This document shows positions 153-34,546 of a DNA stretch of 64,000 nt, one piece after another. The first letter of the stretch is position 1. Each line of letters opens with the position of its first letter. The notes under the pieces were generated by a model. It had not been told where the DNA came from and ran no database searches. It saw nothing but the letters and a program-made list of their open reading frames with translations. The position numbers were made by a program, and so were the translations under genes. The DNA comes from an uncultured Candidatus Saccharibacteria bacterium (lineage in GTDB: Bacteria; Patescibacteriota; Minisyncoccia; Phycocordibacterales; Zambryskibacteraceae): positions 1,635-65,634 of the forward strand of contig CAYLHJ010000002.1 in NCBI GenBank assembly GCA_964383705.1. Direction: 5' to 3'.

Positions 153-2528
153 CTACGAATATAATTGCGACTTATCAAAAGCAATGTGAGAACCTGGTCG
201 TAAATTTCCTGAAATTATTCTGTCAGCAATTATTTTTTCAACTTTATCTTGTATTGCGCGATTCAATGGTCGTGCTCCAAATTTAGGATCACTCCCTTTT
301 TCTACAAGATAGTTAAGCAAGGTGTCATTTACCTCCAGCGTAACTCCTCTCTCTCGGAGTCGCCATTCAAGTTTTTTTAGAAGCATTTTTGCAATCTCTT
401 TAAGGTTGGCTGGGGAGAGCGGATGGAATAAAATGACGCCATCAAAGCGGTTCAGAAGTTCTGGACGAAAAACACCGTCACTTACAATCGAATTTATAAT
501 AAAATCTTTACTCTCCAAAAGGTCTTCCCCCTTCCCAACTGCATCAAAGATGAATTGGCTACCAGCATTTGAAGTTGCAATGATGATTAAATTCCTAGCA
601 CTAATTTTTTTACCTCGAGAATCCGAAAACACCCCCTCGTCAAGAATCTGGAGAAAAAGGTCTAGAACTCTCTTTTCTGTTTTTTCAAATTCATCAAGAA
701 GAAGAACTCCGTAAGGATTTTCTCGAATTAAAGAAACCAGAACACCCTGTTGATCTTGCCCGAAACCGCCTATCAAACGATTCAAAGCATCTGGAGTATT
801 GTATTCGGACATATCGAGACGGAGGATTTTTGCTTCTTTACCAAAAAATATTTCCGCAAGAGCTTTTGTTGTTTCAGTTTTACCAACTCCAGTAGGCCCC
901 AAAAAAAGAAATGAGCCGATTGGTCTATTCGGATTATTTATTCCGGACCGCGCACGACGAAGAGCGTCACTAATGAGTGAGACCGCCTCGTCTTGTCCAA
1001 CAATGCGTTGGTGTAAAAACTCTTCAAGTCGCGTTAGCGTATTTCTTTCCGTATCAGTTATTTCTCCAGTAGGAATTCCTGTTTTTGTTTTAACTAATGA
1101 TTCAATATCTTTATCCATTACTGTCGTTCTGCCAACCGATCTAGCTTCTGCCACAGCACCAATCAATAAGTCACTTGCCGTATCATAAAGCGGTGATCCG
1201 ACAAAATAGCGTGACGCACTTTGAACCGCCTCTTTAACAGCGCCGTATGTAAAAAAGATTCCTTCTTTCTCCTCCAAAACAATAACTTCTTCCATCAAGA
1301 CATCAGAGACCCGACCCTCATCTCCGTCCTCTATAATGATAGTTTCAAAATATTCCATGAGCTTTTGATCGCGCTCAAGGTGATTATGAAATCCTTCCCC
1401 ATCACTTACTGCAATAATGTGAATATCAGGTGAAACGAGAAACTCTGACATGATTGCAACAGCATCACTTTGTAGTGTTTCAGCCCCATATAAAAGACCC
1501 GGAAGATCTGGAATGACAAGAATAATATTGCCCGACTTGATAACTTCTCTAAGAATCTTTAGAAATAAGCGCTCAAACGAAGTCCCGTCTGAGACTGAGG
1601 AAAGTAAAGTCTGCACGGCAAGCACAAGAAATTTCTTATCATGGAGTGATTCATTGGTTTTTTTGTGAATTATTTTTTGGGCTAGACCCTTTATTATTTC
1701 CATCTTTCCACCACCATCTTCACCAATGACCAAAGCGTTAGCTTCTGATGATTTAGAAAGTACGGTTTCTAGTGTTTTGATTTCATTGGCGTAAAGATCT
1801 TTCCCTTGTTCAAGCGATAAATCTAATGAGCTACTAAATTTAAGAAGTGCATAAGCATTACCATATGCCCAATCTCTGCCTATTGGAGATAATCGATTAA
1901 GACGCGCCCTTGACCACCATCGCTCCTTTTGAATTAAATTTTTTTCTAAATCTGAAACCCAGCGAAAAGTATTCCAAAAAGTTTCTGGAGTAACTCCATG
2001 AGCACTGAGAAAGGTTTGAAATTCTTTTTCACCAGATATTAATCCTGAAATAAATGATTCAGCCTTTGATGATTTTTGTGAGAAAACAAAATCTGAAGGT
2101 TTAACCGTTTTCTTTCTACTATCAAGGAATATTTCAATAGAAGCATCGTCAATCCCAAGTCGCATCAAAGTCAAAGCGCCATAATAAGATTCAATGAAAT
2201 TGAGAATTAAATCTTTTCGATTCGAAGAAAAAATAATAGAAGCTAATTCAAATTCGTAAGCACTGTTTCTTTTATCAAAACGATATGAGTAATAAAAAGA
2301 CTCCATTATAAATACAATGAGAAAGGCCGATAAGACAATGAAGAAGAATCCGGACATTGCCCCACTCGCTTGCTCTACAATAATTCCACTTGAGATAACA
2401 AAAGAAATTAATACCAAAAAACCTAATATTTTTATAAACAATCTGCGAGTACTATGAGAAATGCTTTTTTCAAGAAAAAATACTGGTTGCAGATATGAGA
2501 TTTCTTTTTTTAAATCTTCTAAATTCAT
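153..2528 (-). CDS. Clp/Hsp100-family AAA+ ATPase, membrane-anchored, with degenerate first AAA module
   Basis: The second AAA module is canonical (Walker [21 protein letters not shown], sensor and arginine-finger region, ClpB_D2-small-like C-terminus). The first module aligns to ClpC D1 but has Walker A GEDGGGKM and a Walker B-like ILVIPDLP with the DE acidic pair missing. Two N-terminal hydrophobic helices replace the usual Clp_N repeats. Start taken at MNLEDL (2528) rather than the ORF-track start at 2672. Confidence 0.8.
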   Translation of the reverse strand: MNLEDLKKEISYLQPVFFLEKSISHSTRRLFIKILGFLVLISFVISSGIIVEQASGAMSGFFFIVLSAFLIVFIMESFYYSYRFDKRNSAYEFELASIIFSSNRKDLILNFIESYYGALTLMRLGIDDASIEIFLDSRKKTVKPSDFVFSQKSSKAESFISGLISGEKEFQTFLSAHGVTPETFWNTFRWVSDLEKNLIQKERWWSRARLNRLSPIGRDWAYGNAYALLKFSSSLDLSLEQGKDLYANEIKTLETVLSKSSEANALVIGEDGGGKMEIIKGLAQKIIHKKTNESLHDKKFLVLAVQTLLSSVSDGTSFERLFLKILREVIKSGNIILVIPDLPGLLYGAETLQSDAVAIMSEFLVSPDIHIIAVSDGEGFHNHLERDQKLMEYFETIIIEDGDEGRVSDVLMEEVIVLEEKEGIFFTYGAVKEAVQSASRYFVGSPLYDTASDLLIGAVAEARSVGRTTVMDKDIESLVKTKTGIPTGEITDTERNTLTRLEEFLHQRIVGQDEAVSLISDALRRARSGINNPNRPIGSFLFLGPTGVGKTETTKALAEIFFGKEAKILRLDMSEYNTPDALNRLIGGFGQDQQGVLVSLIRENPYGVLLLDEFEKTEKRVLDLFLQILDEGVFSDSRGKKISARNLIIIATSNAGSQFIFDAVGKGEDLLESKDFIINSIVSDGVFRPELLNRFDGVILFHPLSPANLKEIAKMLLKKLEWRLRERGVTLEVNDTLLNYLVEKGSDPKFGARPLNRAIQDKVEKIIADRIISGNLRPGSHIAFDKSQLYS

Positions 2529-2934: not shown

Positions 2935-3744
2935 CTACTCTTGCTTTTTTAAGATAACCTTATTCCCATATTGCAAATCTATTGATTTAACTGTAAGCCC
3001 ACCGTCGTGGAGAACATCTAACTTAGGATCAGATAGAACTGACTCTAGGTTAGATACAACCTTTTCTGGATCATCACGGAGAGAAAAGAATATAACCCCA
3101 GTAGAAAGCTTCAATTCATATGTCTCTCCGACCACATGATTTAAACTTTCAAGGTTAAGGCCGAGAGAGCGAAACCCTGACAAAAATCTATTCATTAAAT
3201 CAAATTCTTTTTGTGGTAAATAATAATCGCCGAGCGGAGAATCATCTAATCTGCCGATATATACGAAATAAACGTTCGGAGAAAATGTTGGCGATTTATC
3301 AAAAACAAAACCTCGGCTATCTAAGAAATAACAGTCAGAGAAAGTGTCGTCTTTGCACCAAAGTGATTGGGGATTGCGCTCGGTGATTGAAATTTGGATT
3401 GATTTTAAAGAAGAAAGTTTAATTTTTACATCATCCACACGCGGAAAATTTAAGGCAATTTCTTTTTGGATTGTTTTTTTGGGATAAAGTAAAGTATTTG
3501 ATTTTGGAAATAAGAAAAAATAATTTCCGGTCAGATGTCTTTTTGAAAGCTCGATAATCTCATCAGACCTCACCACAGAGCTCCCCAAAACTTTAATTGA
3601 AGAAATCGTCACAAAATCAGCTCTAGATAAAAAAACCGGGCCAGCAATAACAAAAATAACTATCGATAAAAAAAATACTGAACGAAAAATAATTTTCTTG
3701 CGGCGCTTTTTTATAAGGTTCGGCGAACGCAAAGAGCGAGGCAT
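2935..3744 (-). CDS. ftsQ: cell division protein FtsQ/DivIB-like (POTRA domain)
   Basis: N-terminal basic tail plus one TM helix, followed by a POTRA-like region (VKIKLSSLKSIQISITERNP), as in FtsQ/DivIB. Confidence 0.6.
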   Translation of the reverse strand: MPRSLRSPNLIKKRRKKIIFRSVFFLSIVIFVIAGPVFLSRADFVTISSIKVLGSSVVRSDEIIELSKRHLTGNYFFLFPKSNTLLYPKKTIQKEIALNFPRVDDVKIKLSSLKSIQISITERNPQSLWCKDDTFSDCYFLDSRGFVFDKSPTFSPNVYFVYIGRLDDSPLGDYYLPQKEFDLMNRFLSGFRSLGLNLESLNHVVGETYELKLSTGVIFFSLRDDPEKVVSNLESVLSDPKLDVLHDGGLTVKSIDLQYGNKVILKKQE

Positions 3745-3756
3745 AATTTCTATTTA

Positions 3757-5025
3757 TTATCTCCCCAAGACCTCCCTGCCATTCAGATATTTTTGCAATA
3801 CTTGAGGGATGTGGACTAGACCATCTCTGTCTTGGTAATTTTCAACCAAAGAAACAAGAATGCGAGGCGTTGGGGCGGCTGTGCAATTTAAGGAATGAGC
3901 ATATTTTACTTTTCCATCTACATCTTTATAACGAATATTAAGTCTCCTTGTTTGAAAATCATGAAAATATGAAGCCGAGCTGATCTCACGATAAGCATTC
4001 TCAAGAGGAACCCAAAGTTCTATATCATATTTTTTTACCTGACCAAGACCAAGATCAGCCCCGCAATTTATAACTGTTCGATATGGGATACCAAGACTTT
4101 CAATAAATTCCTCGGTATTTCTATTTAATTCTTCATGAAAATTAACTGACATTTCATGATTTGCCTCACACAATATAACTTGTTCAACTTTGTAAAATTC
4201 ATGGACTCTAATAAGGCCCTTAACATCCTTACTATAACTTCCGGCTTCTCTTCTAAAGCAGGGAGAAAAAGAAAGAAACTTCTTAGGCAAATCAGAAATG
4301 GGTAGTATTTCATCTGCATGATATCCCATAGTTGCAACTTCTGCCGTGCCTGCTAAGAAATCACCGTCTTGGGTTCTATAAAGATCTTCTTCACCTTGTG
4401 GTAAAAATCCAGTTCCCATAAGATTTTCTCTTCGAACAATCGAAGGAACAATAAATGGAGAAAAACCTCTTTTCAAGAAAAATTCGTAAGCATATTGCCA
4501 AATAGCAAAAGAAAGAAGGGCTCCGTCATTTTTTAAGAAATAACCCCTGAAACCGGCAACTTTCGTCCCCCTATCAAGATCAACCATATCTAGAGATTCC
4601 ATGATCTCAATATGATTTTTTGGTTTAAAATCAAATTTCGGAATTTCTCCCCACCTCTTCACCTCTTTATTGTCTGCATCACTTTCTCCGTCTGGCACAG
4701 AAATATCTGGCACATTTGGAACAGAAACCATAAGCGATTGCCACTCTTTCATTATCTCTTTAAGCTCCGCTTCCTCTTTTTGAAGTTCTTCTTTTAGAAC
4801 TTTCATTTTTTCAATGTATTCTAATTTTAAGGTTGAATTAGTTTCAGAGACAATCAGATTACTGAACTCATTTTGTGTTTTCCTTTTGTCTTCCACCCTC
4901 TGGAGAATATCCTTGCGTTTATCATCTACAGCAATCAAAGAGCGAACATCAAATTTTACATTCTTTTTACGTGCCGCTTCAGCAATAAGATCAGTATTTT
5001 CTCTAATAAATTTAATATCCAACAT
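3757..5025 (-). CDS. serS: seryl-tRNA synthetase
   Basis: N-terminal MLDIKFIREN followed by a coiled-coil arm. Class II motifs are present (FSPCFRREAGSYSKDVKGLIRVHEF, GLGQ). Start chosen at MLDIK instead of the 16-codon ORF-track extension. Confidence 0.9.
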   Translation of the reverse strand: MLDIKFIRENTDLIAEAARKKNVKFDVRSLIAVDDKRKDILQRVEDKRKTQNEFSNLIVSETNSTLKLEYIEKMKVLKEELQKEEAELKEIMKEWQSLMVSVPNVPDISVPDGESDADNKEVKRWGEIPKFDFKPKNHIEIMESLDMVDLDRGTKVAGFRGYFLKNDGALLSFAIWQYAYEFFLKRGFSPFIVPSIVRRENLMGTGFLPQGEEDLYRTQDGDFLAGTAEVATMGYHADEILPISDLPKKFLSFSPCFRREAGSYSKDVKGLIRVHEFYKVEQVILCEANHEMSVNFHEELNRNTEEFIESLGIPYRTVINCGADLGLGQVKKYDIELWVPLENAYREISSASYFHDFQTRRLNIRYKDVDGKVKYAHSLNCTAAPTPRILVSLVENYQDRDGLVHIPQVLQKYLNGREVLGR

Positions 5026-21506: not shown

Positions 21507-21578
21507 GGCCACGTAGACAAGTGGTAAGTCGAGAGTCTGCAAAACTCTTATGCGCGAGTTCGATTCTCGCCGTGGCCT
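21507..21578 (+). tRNA. tRNA-Cys (anticodon GCA)
   Basis: Acceptor ggccacg/cgtggcc. Anticodon loop cuGCAaa. T-arm gcgagttcgattctcgc. Short D-stem. Confidence 0.8.
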
Positions 21579-21592
21579 CCGGGAATATATAT

Positions 21593-21674
21593 GCCCGAGT
21601 GGCGGAACTGGTATACGCGCGCGACTTAAAATCGCGTCCCGTAAGGGATGTGGGTTCGATTCCCACCTCGGGCA
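21593..21674 (+). tRNA. tRNA-Leu (anticodon TAA)
   Basis: Acceptor gcccgag/ctcgggc. Anticodon loop cuUAAaa. Long variable arm tcccgtaagggat. T-arm gtgggttcgattcccac. Confidence 0.85.
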
Positions 21675-21739
21675 CAGAGATCAAATTATCATAGCTGAAT
21701 TTGGTGGGCATAGAGTTAAATAGTAAAGTAATATAATAT

Positions 21740-21812
21740 GCGCCCATAGCTCAGTTGGTAGAGCTGCTCCCTCTTAAGGAGAAGGTCGCAGGTTCGAATC
21801 CTGCTGGGCGCA
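21740..21812 (+). tRNA. tRNA-Lys (anticodon CTT)
   Basis: Acceptor gcgccca/tgggcgc. D-arm gctcagttggtagagc. Anticodon loop cuCUUaa. T-arm gcaggttcgaatcctgc. Confidence 0.85.
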
Positions 21813-21827
21813 CAGTGCGAAATATAT

Positions 21828-21910
21828 GGGCACGTGGCGGAATTGGTATACGCGCTAGTCTTAGGAACTAGTTCCTTAACGGATTGGGAGTTCGAGTCTC
21901 CCCGTGCCCA
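21828..21910 (+). tRNA. tRNA-Leu (anticodon TAG)
   Basis: Acceptor gggcacg/cgtgccc. Anticodon stem ctagt/actag with loop cuUAGga. Long variable arm. T-arm gggagttcgagtctccc. Confidence 0.85.
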
Positions 21911-21994
21911 CAAAAAAGCGAAAAGGTTTATTGACTTTTTAATTATCTGTGATAAAATGTTGTCGGAAAAGTTCTCTCGAATTCAAGATTCTCA

Positions 21995-23005
21995 TTGGAG
22001 GTTCAAATGATGCTCATGATTATAGGCTTTTGGGAGAAAGCGTTCCTTCTCATGGTCGGAACAATCTCCCTCGGCACAGTAGTGGCAATCATTGCATGGT
22101 TTGGCTTCGATAGGCTTGTCCTAAAGATAGCAGACTATGACAAGTGGTGGTCCATCTTTCGGAGACTCCCACTTGAAGGCACTGTAGCATATATTCTGAA
22201 GGGCGGACCTGGCGGTCCAGTCCGCAAAGTCATCCACTCTGTACCGGGCTGGAGTATCAATGAAGATGGGATTTTTATTCCCATCCCAGAACCGGAGGGC
22301 GGATATCTCCGCAGAGAGCTCGGAGTGGTGCTAGTCTGGCCAAATAGCAAGTTCCATACCAGGACCCGACACTATGAGGTACTGGAGCAAGTGCAGGGCC
22401 AGCATGGCGCGGTGATGGTCCCAAAAACGCGCGAGGGTTCTGAATTCTTTTTTCAAACGGTGATCAGCATTGAAATCGTTGCTGCGGAAGATAAGGGTAA
22501 CTTCCCAATCAACGCTAAGGCAACTTTTACAATGCGGATTATCCAACCAATCACAGCAGAATTCACTTCTGGTAAGCCCGAAGTCCAAGCAATGTCTGCC
22601 GCTCGAGTCATGGCAAGAGAATACATCGGCTCGCATCACTTCGATGAGCTTCGAGGTAAAGTCCACCCTGTTCCAGACAATAGCTTGATTGAATTGTTTG
22701 GAATAGAAATCATTGCCATGCGACTCGAAGAATTCAATCCGGTAGATCCGGATAGTGACTATGCCAAGGCAAATCGATTGAAGGAAATCAATCGACTCAA
22801 TGCCGACGCAGCAGGAGAAAAAGCTCGGGAGATAGAGGTGCTAAGCAAGGCTGAAGAAGCAAGAGTCCTCCGGGTTTATGGAGCTAAGGCGGGAGTCAGG
22901 GATGGTGGTTTAATCGCCATGGCCGAGGCCATCGAGTCTTCTAAACCTTCGACCTTGGTAGTTGGGAATTTCCCAACATCAATTCCCCTTCCACCGATTA
23001 AGTAG
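21995..23005 (+). CDS. SPFH/band-7-like membrane protein (GC-rich gene)
   Basis: N-terminal TM, a central beta-rich region, and a C-terminal Ala/Glu-rich coiled-coil (EINRLNADAAGEKAREIEVLSKAEEARVLRVYGAKAG). GC is about 50%, clearly above surrounding genes. The family call is tentative. Confidence 0.45.
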   Translation: MEVQMMLMIIGFWEKAFLLMVGTISLGTVVAIIAWFGFDRLVLKIADYDKWWSIFRRLPLEGTVAYILKGGPGGPVRKVIHSVPGWSINEDGIFIPIPEPEGGYLRRELGVVLVWPNSKFHTRTRHYEVLEQVQGQHGAVMVPKTREGSEFFFQTVISIEIVAAEDKGNFPINAKATFTMRIIQPITAEFTSGKPEVQAMSAARVMAREYIGSHHFDELRGKVHPVPDNSLIELFGIEIIAMRLEEFNPVDPDSDYAKANRLKEINRLNADAAGEKAREIEVLSKAEEARVLRVYGAKAGVRDGGLIAMAEAIESSKPSTLVVGNFPTSIPLPPIK

Positions 23006-23127: not shown

Positions 23128-24378
23128 TTGGAGGCGCCCATGTGGGCAACAATTCGACGATACCCGAAGCGGCTGGTTTTCTTTATCGCTATCTCAATAG
23201 TTCCAATCTTCTTCTTGCTTTTCTACACCCTCTCCCACTACTCAAAGAACGAGAGTGATGTGGTGCTGGAGAGACAAGATTCAGTAAACGTAGTTACGGC
23301 CCCAACCACAGAAAGAGAGCATGAGGGGAGCGCGTCTGGATTCTTTATCCCGCTGATCCTCATTGGCGTCGCAGGCTCTATATGGAGAATGGTAAAGGGG
23401 CGTTGGCCTCATATCCTGACAATGGCGATTTTGGCTAGCGGGATTCTTTTCAACTGGCTTTGGTGGTCAATCCATCCGGCAAGTTGGCAGGAATGGCGTA
23501 ACTCGTCTAGCTTCTGGCCACTGATTTTCTCCATGTTTATCGTCGCCTTTCTCAGTGGAGAAAGTAACCCCGTTGCGAAATTCGCCCGCGGCGCTCTTCT
23601 TGGGCTCGTGATTGTGAGCATCGCCATTGGGGTAACGAGCTATGCGAGAAAAAGTTGGTGTTGGGCAGCTTCAGATGAGGCGAAAGCCCAACTCTGCGCA
23701 ACTACTTATAGTTCAACATCGACCGTCTCGCTTCCTGCGAAGTTTGACGGCCATGCTCGGGATTACTTCAATGGACCCGAAAGAGACTCCGTCCTCGCCT
23801 ACTTCCACGACATCCCCGTACTTGCAGATATTGCTGGAGCCGAATCCGGTTTCAGGCAATACAACAATGGTTCTCCTGACAGGTCCTGTAGCACTGTCTT
23901 GAGAAACAAGAACACGAATGGTACGGAAGACATGGGGGTAATGCAGATCAACGAGGTTCACTGGGGAAAAGCCAAAGAACTCGGGCATGATCTCTGCTTG
24001 CTCAAGGGAAATATGGCTTTCGCCAGACACCTTTATGAGCAAGATGGCACCCAGCCTTGGGAAGCGTCGAGTCCTGTTTGGCGAGATCACTATGTGTCGG
24101 TTCCAAGATCCACCTCATCCACCCAAATAGCGGTAGGGGGCGGAAATACCGTAACTGTTATTGCTCCAAGTGATAGCAGTTGGAGCACCCCCATCGACAC
24201 AAAGGGTCGCAGGACAAGATGTGAAGGAATTCAACACAAGAAATACCGCGCCCTGATTGATAGGAAAAGAGAATTCCAAATCGAACCTGGCGCCTTTAAG
24301 AATGTTGGCCAGTTCCGCTTAATCCAATTCCGTTCAGACAGCTCAGAAGCAACTGAGGTTTCCTGCACGGTCGGATAG
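23128..24378 (+). CDS. polytopic membrane protein with C-terminal lytic transglycosylase (SLT/lysozyme-like) domain (GC-rich gene)
   Basis: About five N-terminal TM helices. Then an SLT-like motif set (AESGFRQYN...GVMQINEVHW...AFARHLYE). GC-rich like the preceding gene. A hairpin terminator follows. Confidence 0.6.
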   Translation: MEAPMWATIRRYPKRLVFFIAISIVPIFFLLFYTLSHYSKNESDVVLERQDSVNVVTAPTTEREHEGSASGFFIPLILIGVAGSIWRMVKGRWPHILTMAILASGILFNWLWWSIHPASWQEWRNSSSFWPLIFSMFIVAFLSGESNPVAKFARGALLGLVIVSIAIGVTSYARKSWCWAASDEAKAQLCATTYSSTSTVSLPAKFDGHARDYFNGPERDSVLAYFHDIPVLADIAGAESGFRQYNNGSPDRSCSTVLRNKNTNGTEDMGVMQINEVHWGKAKELGHDLCLLKGNMAFARHLYEQDGTQPWEASSPVWRDHYVSVPRSTSSTQIAVGGGNTVTVIAPSDSSWSTPIDTKGRRTRCEGIQHKKYRALIDRKREFQIEPGAFKNVGQFRLIQFRSDSSEATEVSCTVG

Positions 24379-24486: not shown

Positions 24487-24756
24487 TTAATTAAGTGGAT
24501 ATATATTTGTGGAAAAACCGAACGAATTGAGCACGAAACGAATAATACCAAAAACTGAAACCATAATGAGCATGCCAACAAGACCCCAAACAATAGATTT
24601 CTTACCCTCTTCCCTTGCTTTATCCTCGCCGGAATTCATAACAAACTTAAAAATACCGTAGAGAAATACAACAAGTGCCACGCTAAACAAAAGTATAATT
24701 ATCGGATTAAGGATAAACTCATTAACCTTGTTGATAAGCGCAACAATTGGAGACAT
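24487..24756 (-). CDS. VirB2/TrbC-like (T4SS-pilin-like) small two-helix membrane protein, paralog 1
   Basis: 89 aa with two hydrophobic helices separated by the charged loop NSGEDKAREEGKKSIVWG. Shares the Gx(E/D)Exx(K/R)xG(K/R)xxxxWG core with the five upstream paralogs. Confidence 0.6.
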   Translation of the reverse strand: MSPIVALINKVNEFILNPIIILLFSVALVVFLYGIFKFVMNSGEDKAREEGKKSIVWGLVGMLIMVSVFGIIRFVLNSFGFSTNIYPLN

Positions 24757-24780: not shown

Positions 24781-25080
24781 CTAGAAACCAGGAACGTATG
24801 GAGTTTCGGAAATCTGAGATTGTCGGATGCCGAAGATATTCCCGAGGAAAGTAGTAAGACCCCAAACAGTTACCATGACGAAAAGGGCTACAACCCCCCA
24901 AATCATAATTCGTCTTCCACGTTCCTTGGCCTCCTCATTTCCGGCAGCAAGAATGAATGTTGCCAATCCCCAGAAAAAGAATAGCAATGCGAGACCAGCA
25001 ACTATAGGTGTTGCTGTTTCAACGATATTGCCAATTTGTGTTATGAGCGTATTGAAATATGTAAAACCCGGAGTATTCAT
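24781..25080 (-). CDS. VirB2/TrbC-like (T4SS-pilin-like) small membrane protein, paralog 2
   Basis: LALLFFFWGLATFILAAGNEEAKERGRRIMIWGVVALFVMVTVWGL: two TM helices around an acidic/basic loop. Confidence 0.6.
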   Translation of the reverse strand: MNTPGFTYFNTLITQIGNIVETATPIVAGLALLFFFWGLATFILAAGNEEAKERGRRIMIWGVVALFVMVTVWGLTTFLGNIFGIRQSQISETPYVPGF

Positions 25081-31530: not shown

Positions 31531-32175
31531 TTAAGAAGTTACTGCTGACAATATAACAATATCACCTTCTTTACCTTCAAGATCTTTTTTCTTTATGGTT
31601 AATTTATCAACTGGTTTAATCCCCTCTTCTCCGCCTTCTTTTAGAAAGGTCTTTAAGGCCCCCGGATTGATATCATCCCCATAATAAATTGGAATAATTA
31701 CTTTTGGTTCAAGTTTAACGGCAAGACTATATGCCTCCGCTGAAGACAAAACGCCATTACCACCAATTGGAACAAATAAAATGTCTATATCATCAAGAGC
31801 TTCGACCGTTTCTGTGGGTATACTTTCGCTTGAAGTAAGAGCTCCGAGAAAACAAATATTCATCCCTTCAAGATTCATAGTGTAAATGGTATTAATCAAA
31901 CTCTCCCCACCATATTTTGTCTGAGAAATAAATCCACGGATAAAAACTCCGGCAATTTCATATTCACCTGGACCACGAATAACAAACGGTTCTTTCTCTC
32001 CTCTACTCGCATTATCTATCCCATTAAAATCAAAATGATTAGCAGAGACAAGAACAATATCTGCCCCAAATTTTGAAAACTTGAATTTTGACTCTTTTGA
32101 GGGTGGATTATAGGCCACAACCATGTCCCCAAACTGGATTTTGACCGATAAGGCCCCCTGATAAGAAATAATCAT
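31531..32175 (-). CDS. metallo-beta-lactamase-fold hydrolase (UPF0173-like)
   Basis: MBL-fold pattern (DIVLVSANHFDFNG, ...GESLINTIYTMNLEGMNICFLGALTS, DILFVPIGGNG) over about 214 aa. Confidence 0.6.
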   Translation of the reverse strand: MIISYQGALSVKIQFGDMVVAYNPPSKESKFKFSKFGADIVLVSANHFDFNGIDNASRGEKEPFVIRGPGEYEIAGVFIRGFISQTKYGGESLINTIYTMNLEGMNICFLGALTSSESIPTETVEALDDIDILFVPIGGNGVLSSAEAYSLAVKLEPKVIIPIYYGDDINPGALKTFLKEGGEEGIKPVDKLTIKKKDLEGKEGDIVILSAVTS

Positions 32176-33415
32176 TATGACTATATATTAGCATATGCAA
32201 ATGATCTCTGCCAGCCAATTATAGACCTATACAAAGCCATATTATATAGCTTTGTGGTTTGTGGATAAGATAATGTGTTGACAAAATTTGAGGACATGTT
32301 ATGATGGGAGTAGAAGCACATCGCAGTTTATCTATAATGAACCGCCTCCACATTGATGATTCACATCATCTTAGGGGCGGCGAAGGATCCGCAAGCACAA
32401 GCTCTGCGGAAACGACGAAGAGGAGAGGAGGTTTCATGACCCGGCTCGCCCGCGGCAGCCCCCATCAGGGGGGTGACATCAAGAGGACCCATTCGACCGC
32501 CGACCAGACCAACGACACCAACATCACCGGCTGATCTTCGGCCGGCTCGGGGTGAGAGCATGAACAAGATTGGGGAAGAGCCCCAACCCATGACCTCACC
32601 CCTCCCTTTCCCCCATAGAGCCCGATGGGCCCGTGCGGGAAAATTCGCGGATTGTCGACGATGGTCCGCGATGCTCGTCCACTTCTCGCCGATGAATCGG
32701 CCAGAACTTCACCTGCGGAGATCGAGCCATGCTCAGCAAGCTGGAAACCGTGCGGGGGGAGCCCGCGGAGATCTGGACGCCGACCGAGTGAGCTGACAAC
32801 ACCGTTCCTGCGCCAAAAGCGTGAGAAAGGAAGATGGCCACGAGGCACCCAGTCTAGCCACTGGGCTCGTCGATAAGATACTTTACTAACTTTCCGCCCA
32901 ACGAAAGCCCCTTCTATTTTGATCGATTCCCTAGTCCCGTATGAATGGGCCGGGTGTCGCAAAACAGCTAAACGCCGAAAATCCTGGTGATTAATAATCA
33001 CCGGATAGTCGCCAAACAGCTAGAAGGCAGATGGCGAAAACTTGGTGGGCTCTTCGCCCCTCGGTGGTGTCTACGAAACACTACCTCAAGTATTCGCGGT
33101 CATGGCATATGGCGGAAAAAGCCACCATTAAAGAAAACGGCGAGAAAAACAGAGAGTACAAACGCTCCGAGGCGCGTCATAAGCCTCGGGAACAGGCACC
33201 CAGTGTGGTGCGCTTCCAAAGAAGGGTCTTTGACCCTTGCCCCCACGACAACCGTTGTGGGGGCTTTCTTTATATATAGACAAATACAGATCTTTGCGGT
33301 AGACTTTCGCTTGTCTTTAAATTTTTAGAAGAGACATTAATTATACGACGCAAGAGCTAATCCCACTTAGGAGAATAGTAGAAACGGCAACAGGTGGACC
33401 TCGGCGGGCAAAAAA

Positions 33416-34546
33416 ATGAAAAATAATACAAAAGATTTCCAAGAAGAAAATCCTTCTTCTGAGGATAGATCGGTTAAAAAGGATTCTTTAATGACGGGCC
33501 TAATGGATGAGAGCGCAACTCCGCCATCCCTTGAAGATCTCATTGAGGGAAAAGTTATCGCCATAGACAAGGGGGCAGTTTATATTGATTTACCACCTTT
33601 TGGAACAGGTATCATTTACGGTAGAGAATATCTAAACGCTAGAGATATTATTCGTAAGGTAAATATTGGCGATACGGTTGCCGGAAAAGTTATCGCCTTA
33701 GATAACAAAGAGGGATATATTGAAATATCCCTAAAAGAAGCTCGCCAAGCAATTATTTGGAGCGAGGCTGAAGATGCTATCCGCGATAAAAAGATATTTG
33801 ATCTTGCAGTAATTGATGCAAATAAGGGAGGTCTTATTTTAAGCTGGCAAGGAATTCAGGGTTTCTTACCCGCCTCACAATTAAAGCCTGAGCACTATCC
33901 AAGAATTTCTGATGGAGACAAAGATAGAATATTAGAAGAATTACGAAAGCTTGTTGGAGAAAAGATTGCTGTGATAATAATTGCCGCAATACCAAAAGAG
34001 GGCAAGTTAATATTCTCTGAAAAGAGTCATGAGACAAAAGACAAAGGCGAGATGGTTGATAAATATGCCTTGGGAGATGAACTTGAAGGAGAAGTTACAG
34101 GAATCGTAGATTTCGGAATATTCATAAAAATCGAAGAAGGTTTAGAGGGTCTAGTTCATATATCAGAAATAGATTGGGCGCTTGTTGAAAACCCTCGAGC
34201 TCTTTATAAGGTGGGAGATAAAGTAAAAGTAAAAATTATTGACATCAAAGATGGCAAAATTTCACTCTCTATCAAGGCATTGAAAGAAAATCCTTGGGTA
34301 AGCGCATCAAAGAAATACAAAAAAGACGATGAAGTTAAAGGAGTAATTATTAAATTCAATAAACACGGCGCACTAGCCTCAATTGAAGAAGGGGTCGCTG
34401 GTCTTGTTCATATTTCTGAGTTTGGTAGCGAAGAAAAATTGCGAGAAAAACTTGAACTTGGAAGAACATACGATTTTAAGATTACTCTTTTTGATTCGAA
34501 AGAGCAGAAGATGGCACTTTCTTTTGTAGACTCAGCAAAAAAATAA
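33416..34546 (+). CDS. rpsA: 30S ribosomal protein S1 (four S1 domains)
   Basis: Repeated S1 OB-fold motifs (GKVIAIDKGAVYIDL, GDTVAGKVIALD, LEGEVTGIVDFGIFIKI, VKGVIIKFNKHGALASI). Confidence 0.85.
   Translation: MKNNTKDFQEENPSSEDRSVKKDSLMTGLMDESATPPSLEDLIEGKVIAIDKGAVYIDLPPFGTGIIYGREYLNARDIIRKVNIGDTVAGKVIALDNKEGYIEISLKEARQAIIWSEAEDAIRDKKIFDLAVIDANKGGLILSWQGIQGFLPASQLKPEHYPRISDGDKDRILEELRKLVGEKIAVIIIAAIPKEGKLIFSEKSHETKDKGEMVDKYALGDELEGEVTGIVDFGIFIKIEEGLEGLVHISEIDWALVENPRALYKVGDKVKVKIIDIKDGKISLSIKALKENPWVSASKKYKKDDEVKGVIIKFNKHGALASIEEGVAGLVHISEFGSEEKLREKLELGRTYDFKITLFDSKEQKMALSFVDSAKK

Follow-up and report, generated by a model that had tools for sequence, protein, structure and literature searches.

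What is encoded by about 1 kb of strongly GC-rich DNA that lies between two divergent genes and carries no credible open reading frame (ORF)? The question is raised by a patch at positions 32290-33290 of a 64-kb stretch of contig CAYLHJ010000002.1 (GenBank assembly GCA_964383705.1, from an uncultured Candidatus Saccharibacteria bacterium); this whole stretch is called the window here, and all coordinates are positions within it unless a comparison locus (L-number) is named. A sequence-only reading of the window had proposed either an unannotated large noncoding RNA (ncRNA) or a remnant of acquired high-GC DNA. Our analysis indicates that the patch is very probably the gene of a conserved structured RNA. 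We consider it probable, with somewhat less confidence, that this gene stands alone and specifies an independent RNA of ~960 nt from the plus strand (32312-33272). The RNA represents a previously undescribed, fast-evolving, and clade-restricted family whose slot is the interval between an MBL-fold/gyrA operon and rpsA in Zambryskibacteria-like Paceibacteria of the candidate phyla radiation (CPR).

A GC-rich outlier without coding signal

Measured in 200-nt windows, GC content is 0.555-0.63 across 32300-32900 and 0.505-0.53 from there up to 33300, compared with 0.36-0.40 in the flanks and an average of about 37-40% for the whole window. The 1-kb bin at 32001-33000 (GC 0.504) is the richest of the 64 kb, the runner-up being a coding region at 22-24 kb (0.49), and the patch is therefore the compositional outlier that the sequence-only reading had described. 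Its reported position is also correct: its neighbors are an MBL-fold gene on the minus strand (31531-32175; PF13483, E 2e-24) and the divergent S1-domain gene rpsA (33416-34546, plus strand; four S1 domains), with gyrA located further upstream on the minus strand, 1 kb away.

The patch contains six overlapping, Arg/Pro-rich ORFs of 77-178 amino acids on both strands, none of which matches a Pfam family. Its 3-periodicity by a Fourier measure is 2.3 (1.6-2.3 for its thirds), which lies below the 99th percentile of shuffled sequences (about 3-4; 3.3 for the patch itself), whereas every real gene examined scores 6-47, among them gyrA, the MBL-fold and S1 genes, and GC-rich ORFs both from the window (two at 22-24.4 kb) and from relatives. 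The same species is present on three Logan contigs whose S1 protein is 100% identical, and one of these, L001, carries a patch that is 94.6% identical to that of the window. The indels separating the two patches measure 7, 1, 1, 3, 1, 2, 1, and 2 nt; because these are not multiples of 3, any long frame would be destroyed. When tblastx was used against the more distant homologs described below, all six frames matched about equally in a conserved block and no shared ORF was found. A protein-coding gene or recent pseudogene was rejected on the combination of low periodicity, frame-breaking indels, lack of Pfam matches, and six-frame tblastx pattern, and the earlier judgment that the patch holds no credible ORF withstands each of these analyses. 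We encountered neither a clean in-frame protein match nor a lack of conservation, both of which that reading had listed among the signs that would count against its proposal.

A predicted transcription unit with a stable predicted fold

The patch has the predicted boundaries of a transcription unit. A sigma-70-type extended -10 promoter is present at 32278-32305 on the plus strand (TTGACA, a 16-nt spacer, and TG-n-TATGAT), and it agrees with the consensus at 11 of 12 positions in addition to carrying the TG extension. A terminator scan identified an intrinsic terminator at 33239-33272 on the same strand, composed of an 11-bp stem with eight G-C pairs, a 4-nt loop, and then UUUCUUUAU. The primary transcript predicted from these signals, a structured ncRNA of ~960 nt (32312-33272), is poor in U (A.26, C.29, G.27, U.18).

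The minimum free energy (MFE) predicted for this RNA is -384 kcal/mol. Measured against three sets of shuffles, the z-scores are -6.3, -7.7, and -11.8. For coding controls of equal length the values were -0.6 to +1.4, and the GC-rich ORFs at 22-24.4 kb gave -2.4 and -3.4. Moreover, the 39 substitutions that distinguish L001 from the window break only 10 predicted pairs, compared with 15.7 +/- 2.3 if they were placed randomly (P about 0.01), and the MFE after these substitutions is -387 kcal/mol, compared with -368 +/- 7 kcal/mol for random placement.

Homologs with compensatory changes

S1-protein scans of GTDB species representatives and JGI metagenomes yielded 160 Paceibacteria/Parcubacteria loci, many labelled Zambryskibacteria. 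When the patch was compared with these S1-anchored loci by blastn and nhmmer, only the same species was recovered, and within the gaps alignment is confined to the two ends, the part near the MBL gene on one side and the rpsA promoter with its leader on the other. Strains of intermediate distance were not found in these collections (no S1 at 90-100% identity and no MBL at 76-97%). Because the MBL protein evolves faster than S1, we also chose relatives by MBL, and homologs of the patch surfaced only in this way. The units of L164 (MBL 76%) and L166 (MBL 75%) are homologous to and collinear with the window RNA, with nhmmer E values of 8e-20 and 4.5e-10, respectively. Weaker matches cover 5' and middle segments, and identity is about 62-71%.

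A consensus structure of 117 pairs was derived from a four-sequence alignment, in which 91.3% of cells are paired compared with 81.2 +/- 1.1 in shuffles. Double-sided changes are seen at 35 of these 117 pairs, compared with 14.3 +/- 2.8 expected (reached in 0 of 500 shuffles), and slid controls gave 35-47%. A second lineage, represented by L012 and L173, behaves similarly: the two RNAs are ~71% identical over 514 nt, and of their 95 predicted pairs, none is broken and 10 carry compensatory changes. Sequence conservation in the window RNA is concentrated in six blocks (32374-32411, 32745-32770, 32826-32872, 32893-32915, 33103-33125, and 33160-33275).

Conserved elements of the RNA

All conserved elements lie on the plus strand, and helix numbers refer to the full-length alignment A5. 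The 5' domain contains a hairpin at 32388-32410 (helix 1; UCCGC-AAGC-ACAA-GCU-C-U-GCGGA) whose inner part and loop, AAGCACAAGCU, are conserved. All alignment cells of this hairpin are paired, and three of its nine pairs show double-sided changes (the window has UCCGC/GCGGA where L164 has CUCAC/GUGAG). A second hairpin, GCGGG-GGGAG-CCCGC at 32752-32766 (helix 12), lies in the block at 32745-32770 and is identical in L164. Two further blocks are shared by the window, L164, and L166: UCCGCCC..CGAAAGCCCCUUCU at 32893-32915, and a block with a small hairpin at 33103-33125 (AUGGCGGAAA(A/C)A..CC; helices 18 and 19), whose core is identical in the three.

Between these elements lies module 2 (32826-32872), which reads AAAGGAAGAUGGCCACGAGG-CACCCAG, a loop, and CUGGGCUCGUCG. 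The module recurs with the same flanks in L166, L169, and L033 and twice each in L012 and L008, and its stem covaries (CCCAG/CUGGG, CCCAAG/CUUGGG, CCCGA/UCGGG). A MAFFT alignment of the CACCCAG module was uninformative owing to variable inserts, and a pattern search partly rescued it: the pattern AAGGAGR...ACGA..CACCCRG[insert]CYGGGCUCG ties L008 and L033 to the window, L166, L169, and L012. Support for module 2 is moderate, given that the raw pattern count is 18 compared with 4-17 in shuffles. The region of module 2 also occurs as internal duplications of ~90 nt in L008 (4453-4545 and 4579-4672, 89% identical) and L012 (~998-1100 and ~1284-1375). These duplications show that the RNAs grow by duplication of modules; translation would read the two copies of L012 in different frames. 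Within the window RNA itself, repeats are limited to short pairs of 12-15 nt.

The most sharply defined element is an H-type pseudoknot near the 3' end (33162-33189), which was defined by a seven-species alignment and captured in covariance model R1. Its helix S1 pairs 33162-33165 (ACGC) with 33174-33177 (GCGU), and its helix S2 is formed by 33167-33173 and 33183-33189. The single nucleotide U33166 makes up loop 1 and CAUAA (33178-33182) makes up loop 3, and there is no loop 2. The 7-bp S2 stem differs in each species (CCGAGGC, CUGGAGC, CCGAAGC, CUCGAGC, UCUGAGC, UCCAAGC, and CCCAAGC), and helix S1 covaries as well, with ACGC/GCGU in the window, AGGC/GCCU in L169, and AGGU/ACCU in the others. 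Across the seven species, 96.1% of cells are paired compared with 82.7 +/- 2.5 in shuffles, and 7 of 11 pairs show double-sided changes; this covariation score was reached by 0 of 500 shuffles, and slid controls gave 18-53%. Model R1 yields a single match per locus, always at this site, in eight species (E 1e-10 to 8e-16) and none elsewhere in ~1.4 Mb, and its match in the window (33150-33199) scores 48.9 bits (E 4e-12). Following the pseudoknot are two hairpins at 33194-33238, GGCACC-CAGUGU-GGUGC(GC) and, after a conserved AAAG, AAGGGUC-UUU-GACCCUU (helices 21 and 22). Both are within conserved blocks, and 96% and 95% of their cells, respectively, are paired.

The unit occupies the same slot in about twenty species

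The divergent MBL/rpsA arrangement is widespread, and in many species the gap measures 80-230 nt. In the clade nearest to the window, the gap expands to 0.8-1.9 kb and has a GC-rich core, and in more distant relatives an ordinary methyltransferase-like gene occupies the slot. A unit of the same layout is found in the same slot in about twenty related species of Zambryskibacteria-like Paceibacteria. Its order is a TTGACAA...TGnTAnnnT promoter, a noncoding GC-rich core of 0.2-0.96 kb, a terminator in most cases, the rpsA promoter TATAGACA-N17-TAGAAT, and rpsA. More than 20 related loci have the homologous TTGACAA...TGnTAnnnT promoter at the corresponding place. The arrangement is repeated in the five relatives scanned (the terminator of L006 was missed by the scan), and terminators comparable in strength to that of the window, with covarying stems, close the units of L004, L008, L011, L012, L164, L166, L169, and L171. 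The window unit combines several of the features by which we delimit the proposed family, in that it lies in the MBL-fold/rpsA slot, has its promoter on the rpsA strand, and carries a U-poor, GC-rich, exceptionally stable, noncoding core with the 3' pseudoknot recognized by R1, after which come hairpins and the terminator.

The cores of 15 relatives have U fractions of.15-.24, C at least equal to G in most, and fold z-scores of -4.1 to -10.6, and those tested for coding periodicity showed none. The genomes have a GC content of 37-45%, and neutral DNA in them would keep neither property, which argues that composition and fold are under selection even where sequence is not retained. K-mers common to the cores are no more frequent than in shuffles, except for AAGGAGGT.

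These comparisons bear directly on the second option raised at the outset, that the patch is a functionless piece of foreign high-GC DNA decaying in a permissive intergenic hotspot. In some relatives the same gap does host clearly acquired, GC-rich small protein genes, such as L030 3963-4400 (GC at third codon positions, GC3, 0.82) and similar cases in L132, L172, and L174; another GC-rich, apparently acquired block exists in the window at 22-24.4 kb; and most cores cannot be aligned between species. However, the patch retains no periodicity or reading frame, no frame is conserved, and a distant-mode blastn search of phage (50,697) and plasmid (72,556) records returned no match. Its promoter and terminator are conserved around the core in about 20 species, and its U-poor composition and extreme fold stability persist in all lineages, whereas neutral decay would erase both. 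Compensatory substitutions occur in two independent lineages and in the pseudoknot. Furthermore, similarity of the element tracks the host phylogeny as judged from the MBL and S1 proteins, a pattern indicative of vertical inheritance. The covariation largely refutes this reading, which we regard as very improbable. The option of a large ncRNA, by comparison, gains support from the promoter and terminator, the fold stability, and the syntenic homologs with covarying stems and pseudoknot.

Strand assignment and a possible role of the DNA itself

A perfect DnaA-box 9-mer, TTATCCACA, lies at 32260-32268 on the minus strand, ~10 nt upstream of the -35 hexamer of the RNA promoter, and is the sole zero-mismatch DnaA box in the 64 kb. 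At the same position, L166 carries the same box, L169 a perfect box in the opposite orientation, and L164 a box with one mismatch. We consider it a candidate regulatory site, judged from its location in the region common to the divergent RNA and MBL/gyrA promoters. DnaA-box-like sequences (TGTGGRTAT) are also present within the promoter spacers of L004, L005, L169, and L171.

The box could be taken to mean that the patch acts as DNA, for example as an origin component, as a site of R-loop formation, or, beside the gyrA operon, as an insulator of supercoiling, with the RNA as a by-product. The position of the box abutting the promoter is conserved, the flanking genes are divergent with gyrA only 1 kb away, and the fold statistics are symmetric between strands. 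Against this stand the G-U-containing pairs and the pseudoknot with its conserved loop and covariation, which are RNA-level features, and the strand-specific biases in AGGAGG (described below) and U depletion. A replication origin (oriC) was rejected as a candidate given that the region is GC-rich and has a single perfect DnaA box with neither a cluster nor an AT-rich unwinding element. We therefore assign a function at the DNA level a very low probability. Because fold statistics are strand-symmetric, it is the promoter and terminator, together with the AGGAGG bias and the low U content, that assign the RNA to the plus strand.

Several observations weigh against the conclusion that the patch encodes a conserved RNA of one family. 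The minus strand equals the plus strand both in fold z-score and in the substitution test with L001, and the transcript ends are predictions from the promoter and terminator. The double-sided changes were counted in the same four-sequence alignment that supplied the consensus structure, and only three or four sequences can be aligned over their full length. For most relatives, the core cannot be aligned with the window RNA, and consequently the label of a single family rests on synteny, the promoter, composition, and the moderately supported module 2, of which the window copy carries a degenerate AAGGAAG. Finally, R1 did not find the pseudoknot in the clade units L004, L006-L008, L010, L011, and L033.

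Comparison with known RNA classes

The RNA does not correspond to a described class. The Rfam 15 collection (4227 models, including those for RNase P, tmRNA, SRP, 6S, group I and II introns, OLE, GOLLD, ROOL, raiA, HEARO, and riboswitches) identified 13 tRNAs across the window at gathering thresholds and nothing in the patch. When E values up to 10 were permitted, the best scores in the patch were 11-16 bits, compared with thresholds of 36-84. Fifteen related loci likewise gave no gathering-level match, and nothing relevant was found in the homologs L164, L166, L169, and L171. Searches of the literature turned up no description of a comparable ncRNA in CPR bacteria.

Individual candidates were also rejected. 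ARAGORN reported 13 tRNAs and no tmRNA in the window, and the sole tmRNA model match (10.7 bits) is truncated and outside the patch. No RNase P model matched at E up to 10, and the CGAAAGYCCC block (32901-32911) resembles RNase P CR-I only superficially. These results agree with the sequence-only reading, which had seen no signatures of RNase P RNA, tmRNA, or group II introns. A sponge of the CsrB/RsmZ type was dismissed because GGA by itself shows no enrichment (z -1.6); for AGGA, 35% of positions are unpaired, compared with 38% overall.

In overall architecture the window RNA can be compared with the large ornate RNAs OLE, GOLLD, ROOL, raiA, and HEARO, bacterial ncRNAs with at most partly known functions that come from GC-rich intergenic regions of AT-rich genomes. 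Like these, it is several hundred to ~1000 nt long, much more GC-rich than its genome, and provided with its own promoter and terminator; it intersperses many covarying helices with conserved single-stranded blocks; and it is restricted to a lineage. Unlike them, it matches nothing in Rfam even under permissive settings, its family turns over faster in sequence (species whose S1 proteins are 80-90% identical have mostly unalignable RNAs) and varies in length from 0.2 to 1 kb, and it features strand-specific Shine-Dalgarno (SD) motifs, mini-ORFs, and a fixed slot beside rpsA.

The 3' pseudoknot invites comparison with the preQ1-I riboswitch and other small H-type pseudoknots whose loop 3 is A-rich, with which it shares its topology: a short helix 1 (AGGU/ACCU), a 1-nt loop 1, a helix 2, and an A-rich loop 3 (CAUAA). 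We take the local resemblance to the presumed preQ1-I pattern AGAGGUUCU...CCUC.AUAA as a lead only. A preQ1-I identity (RF00522) was rejected since there is no Rfam preQ1 match at E up to 10 in the window or up to 1 in the four homologs, helix 2 has 7 bp instead of 3-4, loop 2 is absent and with it the ligand pocket, and the element resides at the 3' end of a 1-kb RNA and not in a 5' untranslated region (UTR).

The resemblance to tmRNA is more general. Both are GC-rich structured RNAs (the window RNA in an AT-rich genome) with a pseudoknot and a short reading frame, and a link to the ribosome is proposed here for the window RNA. Pseudoknots of tmRNA are known ligands of S1 (PMC7708055). The window RNA differs from tmRNA in having neither a tRNA-like domain nor a tag frame that ARAGORN or Rfam could detect, in possessing an ORF with its own SD motif and AUG, and in being two to three times longer.

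Shine-Dalgarno motifs and mini-ORFs

Across 16 cores, the RNA strand carries 13 copies of AGGAGG, compared with 2.6 +/- 1.7 expected, and no copy of its complement CCTCCT; CCUCC-like and UCCU-like words are depleted in the cores. In most units the first AGGAGG is located 40-110 nt past the predicted start, downstream of an A-rich stretch, and it usually precedes a start codon and a very short ORF (1 to 62 codons). In the window, the corresponding region (32420-32534, plus strand) comprises the SD-like sequence GGAGAGGAGG (32422-32431), an AUG at 32436, and a 32-codon ORF (32436-32534); the SD-like motif is conserved and the ORF is not. Some ORFs in relatives are extremely small. L012 and L168 have M followed directly by a stop codon, and L006 has MPP followed by stop, located late in the unit and not near its 5' end. 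MPFP, MPFQ, or MPFL followed by stop occurs in L007 (~4297-4311), L169, L171 (two copies), and L172, the last three on the minus strand. These MPFx ORFs take the form AUG/GUG-CCN-UUY-NNN-stop behind a strong AAGGAGG, and their Pro and Phe codons vary synonymously. Other units have ORFs of 18-62 codons after the first AGGAGG. The mini-ORFs may be ribosome-sensing or stalling elements, as judged from their sequence and placement.

These features raise the alternative of an mRNA or dual-function RNA that is needed for a tiny peptide (from the 32-residue ORF in the window, and from MPFx or other micro-ORFs in relatives), the GC-rich remainder serving as a stabilizing 3' UTR. The SD motif is strong, is properly spaced from its AUG, and in most units lies close behind the predicted start; the A-rich, unstructured regions upstream of it resemble those of efficient mRNAs; and the MPF[PQL] peptide recurs in four species with synonymous codon variation. 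However, the peptides are not conserved among homologs, since the window encodes 32 residues, L164 an unrelated 44-residue ORF, and L166 no AUG behind the same AGGAGG. The 32-codon ORF of the window differs from that of L001 by six non-synonymous and no synonymous changes. The variation in ORF length and the presence of several AGGAGG copies without a start codon, for example in module 2, also count against a peptide product, as does the fact that conservation and covariation are strongest in the 3' domain, far from the ORF. An essential peptide is quite unlikely in our estimation. 

Dual-function structured regulatory RNAs with a small ORF are exemplified by Staphylococcus aureus RNAIII, SgrS, and SR1. 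The window RNA is similar to these in being a long, multi-hairpin RNA with a 5' ribosome-binding site, a short ORF, and conserved 3' hairpins. It differs from them in that there is no sequence or structure homology, the ORF is not conserved, and no candidate seeds for target pairing were identified.

An independent RNA gene or a leader of rpsA

Immediately beyond the RNA terminator lies a separate, weaker promoter for rpsA (33277-33305, plus strand; TAGACA, 17 nt, TAGACT), identified by promoter scan, and with its leader of ~110 nt it forms a conserved segment outside the RNA (33277-33415) that is alignable across the clade. In a comparison of the window, L006, L007, L008, L012, L088, L169, and L171-L173, this promoter (with TAGAAT or TAGACT as its -10 element) and leader can be aligned even where the RNA cores cannot. 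The conserved rpsA promoter and leader may themselves constitute an S1 autoregulatory leader.

We considered the possibility that the whole unit is a cis-acting leader or attenuator of rpsA, in which the strong upstream promoter drives S1 expression, the pseudoknot, 3' hairpins, and terminator together act as a conditional terminator, and read-through is tuned by S1 or by ribosome occupancy of the mini-ORF. The unit is oriented toward rpsA, its end lies ~140 nt from the rpsA start codon, and the conserved pseudoknot directly precedes the terminator. Autoregulation via leader pseudoknots is frequent among ribosomal-protein genes, and S1 binds pseudoknots (PMC7708055). The arrangement recalls the rpsO/S15 leader, the pseudoknot selected in vitro for S1 binding (S1 SELEX), and the tisB standby pseudoknot, in that a pseudoknot lies beside a ribosomal-protein gene; S1 binding here would be by analogy. 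It departs from ribosomal-protein leaders because a terminator, the promoter of rpsA itself, and in some species whole genes intervene (as in L030, L086, L172, and L174), which argues against membership in the class of cis-acting leaders, these being contiguous with the regulated gene as part of its own 5' UTR. The terminators are strong, and the pseudoknot is clear of the terminator stem, so that no obvious antiterminator can form. Whole genes or several hundred nucleotides of extra DNA separate the RNA terminator from rpsA in L004, L009, L030, L086, L172, and L174, and many Paceibacteria manage without the element, having a gap of only 80-230 nt. By contrast, the RNA promoter keeps a distance of ~100 nt to the start of the MBL gene. 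The separate rpsA promoter and leader, the intervening DNA, and the tethering of the RNA promoter to the MBL gene favor an independent RNA gene, and we judge a leader function to be unlikely.

A possible link to the translation machinery

If the patch encodes an independent RNA, it would accumulate as a stable, U-poor RNA or RNA-protein complex that acts in trans. Its partner could be the translation machinery, as suggested by the strand-specific SD motifs, the mini-ORFs of 1-4 codons, the S1-type pseudoknot, and the adjacency to rpsA. S1 binds H-type pseudoknots with high affinity, including those in tmRNA, a preQ1 riboswitch, and rpsO mRNA (PMC7708055), which makes S1 or the 30S subunit a plausible partner of the RNA. 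One possibility is that the RNA binds or titrates 30S subunits or S1; another is that it reports ribosome status via translation of its mini-ORF. Such a translation-related mechanism, which we read from sequence features, is put forward tentatively. The S1 protein of the window (33416-34546) is short, with 376 amino acids and four S1 domains, an observation that bears on the idea of S1-RNA binding. The S1 protein of Escherichia coli has six domains.

A more specific version of this proposal is that the family constitutes a CPR-specific ribosome-associated regulatory RNA, abundant, rich in hairpins, and nuclease-resistant, that buffers or senses translational capacity in minimal genomes. The 30S subunit would be engaged via perfect SD motifs, with or without a mini-ORF of 1-4 codons, and S1 would be engaged via the pseudoknot. 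Under this proposal, selection would act on fold, composition, and a few motifs, which would permit near-neutral turnover of the sequence while the locus persists. We regard this version as rather doubtful.

Features of the slot and of other GC-rich regions

The intergenic slot has repeatedly gained small, often GC-rich genes in relatives and looks like a hotspot of gene gain. Such genes are present at L030 3963-4400 and 4530-4815, L172 ~1500-2000 (minus strand), L174 2096-2776, L086 ~2965-3135, L009 ~4610-4765, and L132 2742-3090. Examples include a signal-peptide protein (L030 3963-4400, the gene with GC3 0.82 noted above), a lipoprotein-like ORF, and small membrane proteins. Directly behind the strong promoter, L132 carries an ORF of ~115 amino acids. 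A perfect palindrome, TTTGTCGACCTCGCAGGTCGACAAA, is found between the RNA unit and the rpsA promoter in L004 (~2152-2183), L005 (~4723-4750), and L086 (~3137-3165), and it could be an operator or an extra terminator stem.

The second GC-rich zone of the window (0.49 GC) contains two orphan ORFs on the plus strand, 21995-23005 and 23128-24378 (336 and 416 amino acids), which show clear coding periodicity and match no Pfam family. Adjoining them are two small genes on the minus strand (24487-24756 and 24781-25080) that match a type IV secretion system pilin family (PF18895). Immediately upstream of the orphan ORFs is a cluster of tRNA genes at 21507-21911 (Cys, Leu-UAA, Lys-CUU, and Leu-UAG), and tRNA clusters are common integration sites. 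This GC-rich block at 22-25 kb was probably acquired horizontally. Among the relatives, L007 has a stretch of 74% GC at a contig end (7201-7651) in a genome of 44% GC, which may reflect a chimeric assembly or another foreign or structured element.

Implications

Large structured ncRNAs are a rarity in bacteria, and new classes have tended to bring unexpected biology to light. None is known to have been described from Paceibacteria/Parcubacteria. In genomes of ~1 Mb with little noncoding DNA, the maintenance of 0.5-1 kb behind one of the strongest promoters of the region implies an important role. The family is an unusually clear example of an RNA locus that persists in its genomic position, composition, and fold even as most of the sequence turns over, and RNA discovery based on homology misses such elements. 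The SD motifs, the mini-ORFs, and the S1-type pseudoknot next to rpsA offer a concrete, testable link to translation control in these uncultivated episymbionts.

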